64,000 bases of DNA from Nitrospirota bacterium. Its GTDB lineage: Bacteria > Nitrospirota > UBA9217. Where the stretch lies: positions 672,001-736,000 of the forward strand of contig CAWFSF010000006.1 of the NCBI GenBank assembly GCA_963818475.1. Reading direction: 5' to 3'. Made by a program: the position numbers and the translations under genes. The notes under the pieces were generated by a model. The model did not search any database, had not been told where the DNA came from, and saw only the letters and a list, made by a program, of their open reading frames with translations. Shown piece after piece: positions 41,027 through 60,607 of the stretch (positions are counted from its first letter, which is position 1; every line of letters begins with the position of its first letter).

Positions 41027-41110
41027 GGCCCTCGAACGAAATGGATAGTGTGATGGGTATGAATCTTCCGGGTTTTGTGTGGGTAGTTTTTCACCCTTTA
41101 TCGATTTTCT

Positions 41111-41485
41111 TGCATATCCCCTTCGCAGCCTGAATGAAATTTTTGACCCGTCTAAGGCCACATCCGCTCGATCGCGCAAACTCGGCCTTTGGCCTCAGAC
41201 AGTGCGCGCTCGCCCTTGCGGGACGCTTCTTTAGGCCAAGACGGGTGCCCAAAAATTTCATAGGGCCGCTCCGTGGACATGCGGGGTTGGTTTAAATACG
41301 TTGCACCAGAAGCTTCCCATGCGAAAATCCAGGCATGCGACCGAGTCCGAGGGTGAAGCATTTCGGACTGTCTGAGCCCGAAGGGCGAGTTTCCGAAATG
41401 TACCGAGGACGACCGAGCATGCCGTAAAGGATTTTCGCCGGGTGCCTCTTTCGGTTACCTTTCTAGGGCAAGCAAGAAAGGTAAC
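41111..41485. repeat. ~375-nt highly structured non-coding element family B, copy 1
   Basis: Colinear with 60130..60512; nested inverted repeats with compensatory changes. Confidence 0.85.
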
Positions 41486-41577
41486 AGAAAACGCGAAAAA
41501 TGGCGCAAATACTGCTTAATAAATCATATAGGCGCTTATTCCACTCACAAGAAAGCCAGAAGATCCGATGTATAAGC

Positions 41578-42661: not shown

Positions 42662-43471
42662 TTATTCCTTTTCTTTCTTCATCCCTCGTTCGCGGAAGCT
42701 CATGATCGCTGCCGCGGCAACGGCGATGGCCGTGACCACCGTAACGGCAGTGGACCTGAACAGCCTGCGCTGCGGAACTACGGGATGCTCGGGCTGGCCG
42801 TACACGGCGGGGGCGTCCAGGAACAGGTAAAAGACGTTCAGCCCGCCTGCCTCGTCATACCCGTAGATGTTCGCTTTGGCATGTCCCAGGGCCTTGAGCT
42901 GCGCCAGACGCGCATCGGCATTTTTCTTGAGCTCCGAGACCTCGCCGAAGGAGATGGAACCCGTGGGGCAGGCCTTGGCGCAGGCCGTGCCCAGGCCGTT
43001 ATGGATGCGGTCGTTGCAGAGCGTGCATTTGTGCACCGTGCCGGTCTTTTCACTGAAGGAGATCACCCCGTAGGGGCAGGAGGGGATGCAGTATTTGCAC
43101 CCGATGCAGACATCGTCCTGGACCACCACGTTGCCCATATCGGTCCGCACGATGGCTTTGACCGGGCAGGCGTTCAGGCAGCCGGCGTCATTGCAATGCT
43201 TGCAGGAGTCGCTTGAGAAGAGCCAGCGCGTCTCGGTGCGGTCCTTGTCGAACTGTTCGATGAATCGGACATGGCGCCAGTCCGTTGCGGAGAGATTCCC
43301 GGTGTTGTCGTAGGAATTTCCCGTGAAATTGAACGCGACCGGATAGGGCACGTCGGCAACCTTGTGAAAGTGCGAGGGCTCGCCTTCGAGGCCGTTCCAT
43401 TCCTTGCAGGCGACCTGGCAGGCCTTGCATCCGGTGCAGATGGAGGCGTCTACGAACATTCCCTTTGCCAT
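42662..43471 (-). CDS. fdnH: Formate dehydrogenase iron-sulfur (beta) subunit
   Basis: CTGCKACQVACKEWN, CKHC..AGC...CP, CIGCKYC...CP, KCTLC...CAKACP; C-terminal TM. Confidence 0.9.
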   Translation of the reverse strand: MAKGMFVDASICTGCKACQVACKEWNGLEGEPSHFHKVADVPYPVAFNFTGNSYDNTGNLSATDWRHVRFIEQFDKDRTETRWLFSSDSCKHCNDAGCLNACPVKAIVRTDMGNVVVQDDVCIGCKYCIPSCPYGVISFSEKTGTVHKCTLCNDRIHNGLGTACAKACPTGSISFGEVSELKKNADARLAQLKALGHAKANIYGYDEAGGLNVFYLFLDAPAVYGQPEHPVVPQRRLFRSTAVTVVTAIAVAAAAIMSFRERGMKKEKE

Positions 43472-46400
43472 TATGCCGCACCTCCTCTCTTGCCTGCGCG
43501 GACATTGCAGGTGAAGACCTTGCCTTCATGGATCGAGACATTGGGGTCCGCCACCAGAGCCGAGAGGTTGTTCACCACGTCGCTCTGCGCCCGTCCCTGC
43601 CAGCCCCAGTGCCAGGGAAGGCCGATCTCGTGCACGGTCTTTCCGTTGATCGTGAAGGGCCGCATGCGCTGCGTCACGAGCGCCCGGGCCTGGATCTTGC
43701 CGCGCGCAGTCTCGATCGTCATGTACTCGGCGTTCTTGATGCCCTTCTCCGCTGCCAGCTCCGGCGAGATCTCGCAGAAGAGCTCGGGCATCAGCTCCGC
43801 GAGCCAGGGCAGCCAGCGCGTCATGACCCCGGTCAGATGATGCTCGGTCAGGCGGTAGGTGGACACGACGATCGGATAGTCCGGGTCCGCGACCTTATGG
43901 TAGGGGTTGCCCGGGATCTTCCAGGTCTTTGCCACCGGGTTCGACTGCTGCTTGTACAGCAGGTTCGCAACCGGCGATTCATAGGGCTCGTAATGCGTCG
44001 GCAGCGGACCGTCCACCAGGCCGGCAGGCGCAAAGAGCCAGGCCTTGCCGTCCGGCCGCATGATGAAGGCGTCGTTGCCCGAAAGCCAGTCAAAGCCGAT
44101 GCCGTTGTCCTTGCCGCGAAAAACCGGCGCCTTGGTCGGCTGGAAATCGATGCCTTCGCCGGAAGGGGAGACCCATGAGCCGCGTGTGATTTTGCCGACT
44201 GGGTCTTTCACTTCTTTGTTCGGGTCCCAGTAGACGAGCTTCTTTTTTTCGGACCAGGGTCTGCCTGCTGCGTCCGCGGAGGCGCGGTTGTACATGATAT
44301 GCCGGTTCGCGGGCCAGGCAAAGCCCCAGTTGGGCGAGATCCAGTTGTCGCCCTGACGGCTGCGAGCCCTGTTCACGCCTTCCGCCGGAATGACGCCGGT
44401 ATAGATCCAGGCGCCGCATACGGTGGACCCGTCCTCTTTGAGGTTCGCGAAAGAGGCAAGCGGCTTTCTGTCCTCCCAGGTGTAGCCGTTGATCTCCTTC
44501 AGTACCTTGTACGCCGACGGCTCGTCCTTGATGCGGAAGTTCGCCACCTCGGCGGGCTCGGGTTCGTAATCCCAGAACAGGTTCCTGATCGCCCAATCGA
44601 GGTCCCTTGAAGACGAGGCATACATCGTTCTTCAGCTTCTTGCCCGAGATGGTACGTGAACCAGATGTCGCTTCTCGCATCATCAGGCGGATCGGCTGCT
44701 TTTTCGTGCTGCTGCAGAAGCCGCTGGGTATTCGTGAACGAGCCCTCCATCTCGGCCACCGCCGCAGCGGGAAGGAAGAAGACCTCGGTCTTGATGTCCG
44801 ATGATTTTACCTCGCCCTCCTTGATCTCGGGAGAGTTGCGCCAGAAGGCCGCGGTCTCGGTTTCGAAGAAATCGCGCACCACCATCCAGTCGAGCTTTGC
44901 GAGCGCTTTGCGCTGGAACCGGGCATTCTGGCCGCCGACAGCCGGGTTCTGGCCCATCACGAAAAAACCCTTGATCTTTCCGTTCATCATGTCAACGAAC
45001 ATGGGCAGATGGGAATGGTCGCCGGTGATCTTGGGGTGGTAGTCGTAGCCGTAGTCGTTCTCTTTTGTCGCTGCATCTCCCCACTGGGCCTTGAAGTAGG
45101 ACACTGCGAACTTGGGGTAATTGCCCCAGTAGCTCGTTGAGACCGGCACGGCCTCGGTGAGGATGAAGTCCTTGAACGTATCATGGTTCTTGCGCGCATC
45201 CGGCATGTTCAGATAACCCGGAAGGGAGTGGTAGAGCGTGGCGATGTCCGTCGAACCCTGGATCGTGGCATGTCCGCGGAGCGCCAGCACCCCGCCGCCC
45301 GGCCTGCCGATATTGCCCAGGAGCGCCTGAAGCATGCCGGCCGTGCGGATGATCTGGACCCCGACCGTATGCTGCGTCCAGCCTACGGCGTACGTGATGT
45401 TCGCGGTCTTTTCGCGGCCGGAATTATTGAGCAGCGTGTCGGCAACCTTCAGGAACTTTTCCTTCGGACAGCCGCAGATCTGTTCGACAATCTCGGGCGT
45501 GTACCTGCGATAGTGCCGTTTTACGATCTGAAAGACCGTATGCGGATCTTTCAAGGTTGGATCGGTTTTGGGCCTTCCCGGCACTTTCTGCAGCAGGAGG
45601 TCGGTGAAGGTCTTTGCTTCGGCCACGGAAGGGGCAGGCGCGGGATTCCGCTGATAGGACCAGCTCGCGTTCGAGTATGCCTTGCCGTCTTCCGAAAGCC
45701 CGGAGAAGAGGCCGTTCAGCTCTTCGGTGTCCTTGAAATCGGGATTCACGAGCGTGGCCGCGTTCGTATAATTGAGGACGTATTCTTTAAAGAAGGGGTC
45801 CGTGTTCCAGCGTTTGCTGTTGATCACATGACTGATGATCGCGCCTAGGAACACGATGTCCGTTCCCGCGCGGATGGGGGCGTGGATATCGCACATGGCG
45901 GACGTGCGCGTAAAGCGCGGATCAACATGCATCAGCACCGCGTTGTGGTCCGTCTTTGCCTTGAGCGGCCAGCGGAACGCCGACCGGATGGCATTCCGCC
46001 ATGTTGGAGCCCATGATCATGACCGCATCGGAGTTGACCAGATCGCGCGGAAATGTGGTTGAACCGCCTCTTCCGAAGGAGACCCCCAGACCGGGGACCG
46101 TGGAAGAGTGTCATATGCGCGCCTGGTTTTCGAGGTAGACCACGCCGAGAGCGTGCATCAGCTTCTGATGCGTGTAGTTCCACTCGTTGTCCATGGTCGC
46201 GCCGCCAAGGGACGCAAGAGCGTAGGTGTTCATCACGCGTTTCTTGCTTGAACCGCCCTTGTTCGTCCGGCATGTCCTGGAACTCGTTGAAATTCGCATC
46301 GCGGGTCTTTTTCGTGAGCTCCGCAATCCTGTCCATGGCCCAGTCGAGCGGCTTTTCCTCCCAGTGGTCGCTCCCCGGCGCCCGGTACTTGACCTTGGTC

Positions 46401-59527: not shown

Positions 59528-60054
59528 AAGCAATGGGCAGAAATGAATATTCCAGGAGAGAATTTCTGAAAACATTCGCAATGCTATCCTCTGCATCGGT
59601 CATAGGGCTGAGCTTCGGATGCGCTGAGCCACAAGACGGAGCACTCTATGGTCCGGCAGCACTCTATGGTCCAGTAGCACTCTATGGCCCACCGCCCGTG
59701 AACTTAGTTCATCCCGAGGTCACCGCGATCTACTTCATCGACGATCAATCAACGAGAATTCTTCTGCAGAATAACCAGAACGTGCCCGTCCAGGTCGTCT
59801 GCCGCATCGATTTCAGCAAGTCCATGAATACAACAATGCCGGTCACGATCAGTTTTACCGATCCCGCTGAGAATGCAGTCCCGATTTCTCAAGCATGGGC
59901 GAATGACCTGACCTTGATCGTAACGCCAACATCGCAGCTTCTGTTCAATTCAGCATATGCCTTGTCCGTAGGAAATGATGCGGAGGACATTTACGGCAAC
60001 AAGATCACGTTGACTGTGGATGCAACGGTATCGTTCAGGACCGTCAGCGCATAG
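59524..60054 (+). CDS. Tat lipoprotein with 3x ALYGP and an Ig-like domain
   Basis: SRREFLK; SFGC; GALYGPAALYGPVALYGPPP; FSKSMN...TP...L...Y.L Big_5-like region. Confidence 0.8.
   Translation: MKAMGRNEYSRREFLKTFAMLSSASVIGLSFGCAEPQDGALYGPAALYGPVALYGPPPVNLVHPEVTAIYFIDDQSTRILLQNNQNVPVQVVCRIDFSKSMNTTMPVTISFTDPAENAVPISQAWANDLTLIVTPTSQLLFNSAYALSVGNDAEDIYGNKITLTVDATVSFRTVSA
59641..59694 (+). repeat. 18-bp tandem repeat x3 encoding ALYGPx
   Basis: gcactctatggtccggca gcactctatggtccagta gcactctatggcccaccg. Confidence 0.92.
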
Positions 60055-60129
60055 TATTTGGGTCTTCTGGGTTTGATGTGGGCCGTTTTTATTCTGTTTG
60101 CATCCTTAAGAGGATGAGGTATGCTTTTT

Positions 60130-60512
60130 TGCACATCCCCTTCGCGTCCTTAATGAAATTTTTGACCTGTCTAAGGCCACATCCGCTCGACCGCGCAAAC
60201 TCGGCCTGCGGCCTCAGACAGTGCGCGTTCGCCCTTTGGGACGCTGCCTTAGGCCAAGACAGGTGCCCAAAAATTTCATAGGTCCGCTCCGGGGACGTGC
60301 GGAGTTTGGGTAAAGATTAGAATCAAAGGTTCTTGGTGTTCCCATGCGAAAATTTAGCCAGGCGACCGAGTCCGAGGGTGAAGCATTTCGGACTGTCTGA
60401 GCCCGCAGGGCGAGTTTCCGAAATGTACCGAGGACGACCGAGCCTGGCGTAAAGAATTTTCGCCGGGTGCCCTTCTTTGGGTCACCTTGCTTGGGCACGC
60501 AAGAAAGGTGAC
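60130..60512. repeat. Structured non-coding element family B, copy 2
   Basis: Colinear with 41111..41485. Confidence 0.85.
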
Positions 60513-60607
60513 GAAAAAAGCTTGTTAAATAAAATACATCAGCACGTTTACAGTTTACCGACCCACACAAAAGTCAGAAGACCCTAGTATTTAAAGAGGG
60601 GGGCACG

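Follow-up and report, generated by a model that had tools for sequence, protein, structure and literature searches.

Bacterial MITEs are up to about 400 bp in length and fold into long stem-loops (PMC3184786, Delihas 2011). The same source describes bcr1 of the Bacillus cereus group, an element of about 155 bp with 5-bp repeats that is transcribed and in which compensatory changes keep a cruciform-like RNA fold (PMC3184786). REPINs are hairpins in which compensatory changes are common and which go with RAYT transposases (Bertels and Rainey 2011, PMC3116915). Mosaics also arise among non-autonomous elements, by way of mobile insertion cassettes and Tn3-derived TIMEs (PMC4133298, PMC3129680). 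The repeat described here, from Nitrospirota, has a shell of a known MITE kind. The cargo departs from the usual picture, as it comprises two independent hairpin modules, foreign and deeply conserved, in which loops are kept constant and a long-range contact covaries. We found no description of this element for Nitrospirota in the literature, supplementary files apart, where a listing is possible.

The window, the whole stretch of 64,000 nucleotides analyzed, is part of contig C6 in a 7-contig, 4.66-Mb Nitrospirota assembly (G000). One sequence is present twice, at 41111-41485 and 60130-60512 (about 560 aligned columns, 85% mean column identity), with a variable linker separating two conserved blocks. 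The original prediction, that the copies can be aligned outside a variable central linker, is thus borne out. The full element is wider, spanning 41061-41566 (copy A) and 60060-60584 (copy B), or 506-525 bp, and both copies are bounded by 23-nt terminal inverted repeats. As these repeats lie outside the coordinates first drawn, the MITE nature of the element was missed at that stage. Copy A lies on the opposite strand within a molybdopterin oxidoreductase operon, with an NrfD-like gene on one side and fdhE on the other, and copy B lies in sense orientation downstream of a radical SAM/SPASM gene and a Big_5 gene. This agrees with the context first assigned to them (antisense in an fdh-type operon and sense in an rSAM cluster). 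There is no coding potential common to the two copies, as their internal ORFs differ in frame and length. No transposase gene lies inside the element, and the only "proteins" that recur near copies are frames running through the repeat itself. Elsewhere in the window, on the minus strand, the catalytic subunit of a molybdopterin oxidoreductase (43471-45938) is split into overlapping frames (43471-44625 and 44499-45938), for which a frameshift or a selenocysteine codon in frame may be responsible.

The left terminal inverted repeat of copy A (GAATCTTCCGGGTTTTGTGTGGG, 41061-41083, plus strand) resembles the downstream end of a 1378-bp ISL3 insertion sequence that we describe below. The right repeat occupies 41544-41566 on the minus strand (reverse complement, GGATCTTCTGGCTTTCTTGTGAG). 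In copy B, the left repeat is GGGTCTTCTGGGTTTGATGTGGG (60060-60082, plus strand), and the right repeat is at 60562-60584 on the minus strand (reverse complement, GGGTCTTCTGACTTTTGTGTGGG). On both sides of copy B stands an exact 8-bp target duplication, TAGTATTT, at 60052-60059 and 60585-60592 (8/8 match). The corresponding sites of copy A, at 41053-41060 on the left and 41567-41574 (GATGTATA) on the right, are decayed and were placed by aligning the junctions with an empty site in the sister genome G003. There, the flanks of copy A are contiguous (C8:705958/705959), with GATATGCAT as the counterpart of the left flank GATGGGTAT. We therefore interpret copy A as an insertion of about 510 bp whose target copies have decayed. 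Comparison of empty sites had been proposed along with the original prediction, and copy A provides just such a filled-versus-empty polymorphism. All three evaluable G000 loci (copy A and two more) are empty in G003, a count outside which stand the other loci tried, D2-only units included, where flanks are missing or gaps are ambiguous.

Our set of distinct full-length cores, drawn from G000 and its relatives, numbers 41, and repeats were scored with up to 7 mismatches to the 23-nt consensus. Both inverted repeats are present in 21 cores, only one in 7, and none in 13. Elements with both repeats are mostly 502-533 bp long, and the 8-mers that flank the 21 two-repeat copies match at 8/8 positions in 7 cases, 7/8 in 6, and 6/8 in 1. 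The ISL3 family typically produces 8-bp duplications. A search with PF01610 across 31 genomes of the family identified full-length ISL3 transposase genes in 10, and around four ISL3 genes we found a 1378-bp IS, in G014 (two copies), G011, and G047 (L141:901-2278, on G014:C7; L149:1443-2820; L140:14-1391; and L145:901-2278). Its transposase is a 383-amino-acid open frame that covers PF01610 positions 1-239 of 240 (241 bits). The IS ends are GGCTCTTCCGACTTTTCAATGGG and GGGTCTTCCGGGTTTAGTGTGGG, with inverted repeats that begin GGsTCTTC, and it has 8-bp duplications of its own. The two G014 copies are 99.9% identical, and thus the IS is probably active. The MITE and the IS match over 28-31 nt at their ends (84-89% identity), with the remainder unmatched. 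At one end, the IS differs from the MITE repeat by only 1-2 bases, and the D1-side end of the MITE is the IS end downstream of the transposase gene. The core sequence has no match in 19 ISL3 loci; judged from these comparisons of sequence, the MITE interior is not IS-derived. The single ISL3 transposase gene of G000 is fragmented, so the copies in this genome probably cannot move at present. No transposase lies beside a solo inverted repeat at G000:C3:108880. We also note a promoter-like site (TTGTGA, 16-nt spacer, TATGAT) at window positions 41523-41550 on the minus strand, facing inward from the right arm of copy A, where the transposase promoter of the parent IS would sit.

We conclude that the window copies are ISL3-derived MITEs and that their shell is ordinary selfish DNA. 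This accounts for the existence of two copies and for the presence of copy A inside a formate dehydrogenase-type operon. Relative to the ISL3-family IS (PF01610), the ends and the duplication length match the 1378-bp element, but the MITE lacks a transposase, and only about 30 nt per end are common to both. An ISL3-family DDE transposase would move the element in trans, recognizing the 23-nt terminal inverted repeats and inserting at AT-rich sites with an 8-bp duplication. Of the earlier suggestion of a non-autonomous mobile element folded as single-stranded DNA, "non-autonomous" and "mobile" stand. For these two copies the single-stranded route does not, as ISL3-like repeats and an 8-bp duplication are those of a double-stranded, DDE-type MITE. 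Internal hairpins are not known to be needed by a DDE transposase that works on double-stranded DNA.

Like the IS-derived MITEs covered in the part of PMC3184786 available to us, the Nitrospirota element has terminal inverted repeats, a target duplication, no transposase, many intergenic copies, and long stem-loops. It also has a parent IS with matching ends, and its size of about 510 bp compares with the upper limit of about 400 bp stated there. Unlike those MITEs, its interior is not a deleted IS, and its two halves do not pair with each other. Instead, the interior consists of two separate, foreign, local hairpins that are also found outside the repeats. As in mobile insertion cassettes and TIMEs, IS or transposon ends surround a passenger unrelated to the transposase, and modules form mosaics; the passengers in the available parts of those accounts are mostly genes, whereas the Nitrospirota passenger is a non-coding structured module (PMC4133298, PMC3129680).

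The modules lie on the plus strand in both window copies. Copy A carries D1 (41106-41287), a long branched hairpin with a T-run at its start, then the variable linker (41288-41315), followed by D2 (41316-41442), a long hairpin that ends in a GCCC-GAA-GGGC tip and has two internal loops, both conserved, and finally hairpin H3 (41454-41485), the 3' end of the D2+H3 unit. The same order is found in copy B (D1, 60125-60305; linker, 60306-60340; D2, 60341-60467; H3, 60481-60512). With the core as query, BLAST against G000 and the collected loci returned 149 matches, of which 68 start at core positions 0-9 and 33 at 210-219, and 109 end at positions 380-395. Match boundaries indicate that many core copies are truncated. 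Full cores have sharp ends (5', TTTTTTGCAYATCCCC; 3', GGTGACA), and solo D2+H3 units begin at CCCATGCGAAAAT, upstream of which the sequence is unrelated. Solo D1 units likewise have unrelated flanks and often occur with a second type of inverted repeat and an additional module. Inverted repeats are missing from most D2-only units, and the repeat-less units have sharp ends with no regular short duplication. Given that 13/41 cores and most D2-only units are repeat-less, mobilization by ISL3 does not account for the spread of the modules. The interior would be a patchwork of hairpin modules that are older than the MITE and were dispersed independently, namely D1 and D2 with H3.

One repeat-less copy (G000:C6:1929187-1929646, or L069:788-1247) is an insertion relative to G003, with arms that differ. 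It is flanked by a 15-bp direct repeat, GAATAGACCGCwATG, unlike ISL3 transposition. Long direct repeats were sought around the repeat-less units, and this 15-bp case was the only one found; two others belong to different modules. Several further sequences occur with the modules. An extra hairpin, CCCGAC..GTCGGG, sits inside the apical mini-hairpin loop of some D1 tips (G000:C2:313700 and G000:C5:383635) and, in the opposite orientation, of a D2 tip (L011:1500-1702). Some copies contain or adjoin another short palindrome, rich in G (CCCTCTCCCCTCGAGGGAGAGGG...; G000:C5:388750-388820, and near both G000:C3:274000 and G000:C6:2209430). In other mosaics, D1 or D2 is joined by a further common module (TTTCCAGAGGCCCCTGCATCCCGTGAACAGG) and the second type of inverted repeat (GGGYCTTCTCCCTCKTGAGTGGG), downstream of D1-only units (L158-L165) or, reversed, upstream of D2-only units (L107 and L131).

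The modules are widely distributed in the phylum. An initial BLAST search found matches in 20 of 41 related genomes, including 18 of 24 in the family of the window, with 1 to >20 copies of the element per genome and about 16 loci in G000. A covariance model of D2+H3 (E ≤0.001) detected the unit in 36 of 151 Nitrospirota genomes, among them 24 of 27 from the window's family. In a genome of another family (G061), the model matches at least 17 times and BLAST 38 times within 2.1 Mb. Its D2+H3 units are solitary and sharp-ended, without inverted repeats, and we found no orthologous flanks for the units of this second family. Their helices differ in sequence from those of the window's family, and the unpaired stretches are identical; those kept across both families are AGGGTTAA, TGTYTGAG-mini-hairpin-GAGTTT, ACCGRAGG...GACCGA, and the H3 loop. 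A third family has only the apical part of D2, inside another palindromic element of about 190 nt. This element (L178-L184, in G114 and G135) has inverted ends of its own (CCAGCGATAAGGAT...), with the D2 apical motif inside.

Conservation between genera is high. Over 528 nt, MITE copy B shares 93% identity with a copy from a different genus (G014), rising to 96% in the core, whereas the formate dehydrogenase-type genes next to the element are 71-82% identical to those of G014 (90% to those of G003). That the MITE is more alike across genera than its neighboring genes points, on this comparison, to recent horizontal spread, strong constraint, or both.

Both window copies fold better than dinucleotide shuffles on either strand (z of -4.5 to -5.8, with 0/100 shuffles as good). 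We aligned 68 of the 70 distinct D2+H3 units, excluding L107:1866-2024 and L017:710-935 for their deviant lengths, and projected the structure from the fold of copy B. In this alignment, 95.6% of cells pair. Changes on both sides occur in 23 of 55 pairs (9.0 in shuffles) and in 120 cells (33.4 in shuffles), values reached by 0/500 shuffles, and slid structures give 4-15 pairs. For all 38 distinct D1 units, the corresponding values are 17 of 62 pairs (versus 9.1) and 81 cells (versus 21.2), again with 0/500 shuffles reaching them; for both modules, the covariation figures are generous, the structure having been taken from one of the related copies, and the shuffle controls overstate significance because the copies are mutually related. 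The per-pair tables contain many clean switches. Examples are columns 61/184 (CG 32, UA 4) and 10/224 (CG 25, UA 11) of the A4 alignment and, in A3, 24/137 (GC 37, CG 21), 19/149 (UA 43, CG 22), and 183/211 (CG 51, UA 7). The five stem differences from which compensatory change was first proposed are all present in copies A and B, and each recurs as a covarying pair in the larger alignments. With covariation across 68 and 38 distinct copies, shuffle and slide controls, and helices that covary between families, the view that the structure is under selection is supported.

A contact beyond the local hairpins also covaries. The segment GGG[X]GCC upstream of H3 covaries with the H3 loop, GGGC[Y], with X-Y being T-A in 68, C-G in 28, and T-G in 1 of 97 distinct fragments. 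In copy B, the segment is GTGCCC (60467-60472, plus strand), and the loop is GGGCAC (60493-60498). RNAalifold picked this helix unprompted from a mixed alignment. It cannot nest with H3 and must therefore be a pseudoknot or an alternative fold. A loop-loop contact between D1 and D2 was also considered and is not supported, as variants of the D2 apical loop co-occur with unaltered D1 in the same element.

Template switching and mismatch correction are known in quasi-palindromic DNA, and the pair-keeping changes might be a mutational by-product of these processes, with no selection on the fold. The elements are indeed palindromic DNA of the kind in which such correction occurs, and both strands fold about equally well. 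However, correction should perfect a palindrome, whereas bulges, internal loops, and wobbles persist across 68 copies and between families. Furthermore, covariation extends to the pairing of a hairpin loop with a single-stranded segment, and the most conserved alignment columns are the unpaired motifs. We thus regard a purely mutational origin as very improbable. Selection on the modules would instead maintain helix pairing by compensatory changes and hold the internal loops constant, and the modules would act as folded single strands.

Whether the single strand is RNA or DNA bears on how the modules are read. On the plus strand, G-U cells outnumber A-C cells by 197 to 65 in D2+H3 and by 191 to 48 in D1, an excess that comes mostly from a few fixed positions (by column, about 26 to 20 in a hand count). 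Among these wobble positions, one is U-G in 51/68 copies and another is G-U in 43/68. The excess favors the plus strand, on few positions. In 4/4 sediment metatranscriptome runs, contigs span 60125-60516 and leave the rest of a 1.6-kb stretch uncovered; their loose ends coincide with module boundaries. As these contigs are strandless and DNA carry-over is possible, they place relatives of the element in RNA libraries and are no proof of transcription. Promoter-like and terminator-like sites occur in our scans at chance level. We lean toward folded RNA, produced by read-through or from IS-end promoters, over folded single-stranded DNA, holding the former to be possible and the latter a more doubtful candidate.

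If the strand is RNA, D2+H3, with D1 as its inverted relative, could be a functional structured noncoding RNA that acts in trans or on the element's own spread and is copied around the genome, the ISL3 MITE being one vehicle only. Several observations fit such an RNA, including helices that covary within and between families around constant unpaired motifs, the covarying pseudoknot-like contact, wobble pairs fixed on one strand, the core in metatranscriptome contigs, the lack of shared coding potential, and sequence conservation across genera that far exceeds that of adjacent genes. On the other hand, no locus is retained among the three that could be compared with the sister genome, many copies are truncated, copy number varies from 1 to >20 per genome, and the promoter signal does not rise above chance. 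Orientation between tandem genes also shows no preference (28 sense and 22 antisense, from crude longest-ORF gene calls). By the same crude calls, convergent gene pairs are favored over divergent pairs, 23 to 8, as selection against insertion into promoter regions would give. Finally, there is no Rfam relative. Rfam 15 at gathering scores gave 0 matches over the whole window, and at E ≤10 over copy B it gave one chance-level match (TLS-PK2, 14.9 bits against a threshold of 42). The original statement that the element belongs to no known family therefore holds for Rfam and fails for the mobile shell, the ends of which are ISL3-type. On balance, we consider a functional RNA of this kind unlikely. 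A parallel for an RNA-level fold in a repeat is bcr1, which is likewise non-autonomous, flanked by short direct repeats, and marked by compensatory base-pair changes. It differs in occurring in Firmicutes and in having no sequence relation to the Nitrospirota element, and no parent IS is named for it in the available part of the source (PMC3184786).

The two modules are related to each other at their tips. A 32-nt apical motif is common to D1 and the reverse complement of D2 (29/32 identical), and the D2 covariance model also matches D1 on the opposite strand. The mutual complementarity of the apical parts and their GCCC-GAA/GCA-GGGC mini-hairpins had been noted at the outset, and both are confirmed, the mini-hairpins as GCCC-GNA-GGGC. 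The inversion of the motif between D1 and D2, the cGNAg triloops in D2, and the sharp ends of repeat-less units without a regular short duplication are features that might be expected if the hairpins were single-stranded DNA substrates of a structure-specific recombinase, and if that enzyme, not ISL3, spread the repeat-less units. Models for such a system are IS200/IS605 ends, REPINs with RAYT, and integron attC sites. Y1-transposase-like genes are numerous (11 matches in G000), and one of them has a D2 unit immediately upstream. These genes, of about 260-340 amino acids with an N-terminal Y1 transposase domain and a C-terminal helix-turn-helix-like tail, occur at 11 places in G000 (e.g., C5:403573-403899; also L056:1468-2337) and are multicopy per genome and unlinked to the element.

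The search for a partner enzyme nevertheless argues against a recombinase of these types. Across 39 transposase loci (24 IS110, 8 Y1, and 7 of 19 ISL3), the module model gave one match, at a Y1 locus. A nuclease or HUH partner, the presence of which had been put forward as a check on the original prediction, was thus not found, with 1/8 Y1 loci matched and the TnpB domain in 0/5 element-rich genomes. A RAYT/IS200 partner was rejected on the same Y1 count, and all 11 Y1 matches in G000 are >9 kb from copies. We likewise rejected a TnpB guide-RNA scaffold or IS200/IS605 ends (PF07282 in 0/5 element-rich genomes and no replication-strand bias, with orientation relative to local GC skew at 37 to 40) and an IS110 bridge RNA (0/24 IS110 loci); nor did any of the 7 ISL3 loci match. 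An integron attC site was suggested by clusters in G014 (L044:2300-14431 and L045:2334-15086), where groups of 4-7 same-strand copies are separated by small unrelated genes. We dropped this reading because no integrase above the cut-off was found in G000, G003, or G014, none near the G014 clusters, and because one cluster contains housekeeping genes (rlmN-like and ychF). No protein recurring beside copies was found when sought.

The 32-nt motif, moreover, never occurs outside the modules in G000 (22/22 true matches are inside elements), which also sets the element apart from REPINs, as does the absence of a RAYT gene flanked by modules and a module length of 130-180 nt, compared with about 100 nt. 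It resembles REPINs in having two inverted copies of a motif, a hairpin with compensatory changes, singlets as apparent remnants, and a possible switch between one long hairpin and two local ones; both sets of comparisons are with the part of the REPIN account available to us (PMC3116915). We deem spread by a structure-specific recombinase improbable.

We therefore favor, as a rather probable though far from certain explanation, an ISL3 MITE shell around an older cargo of hairpin modules under selection for their fold. Of its steps, the anatomy of the MITE, its polymorphic insertion, the existence of a parent IS, the modular interior, and the covariation are shown, and the others are inferred. 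The modules may be selfish repeats similar to REP, ERIC, or bcr1, persisting because their fold is required for spread or makes insertion tolerable. A bolder proposal, which we hold to be doubtful, is that D2+H3 is an undescribed, phylum-wide structured nucleic acid of about 180 nt that propagates itself by a structure-dependent route, and that D1 and D2+H3 were taken up by ISL3 MITEs. In this unit, the helices and the pseudoknot-like contact covary, the internal loops are invariant and contain four CCGAG repeats, and GA/GA flanks the tip. If this were true and the molecule were RNA, D2+H3 would be a new class of large mobile noncoding RNA; if it were single-stranded DNA, it would point to a new hairpin-recognizing mobilization system in Nitrospirota.

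The finding matters for the biology of this uncultured phylum because compensatory change has kept the fold of the cargo in at least two of its families and partly in a third. The cargo reaches tens of copies per genome and exceeds catalytic genes in conservation between genera, and neither an RNA family nor a partner enzyme has been described for it. For the annotation of Nitrospirota genomes, its description lets a repeat that breaks assemblies be masked. It also offers a concrete case in which one can test whether bacterial genomes retain structured repeats because these spread themselves or because they act on the host at the RNA level.
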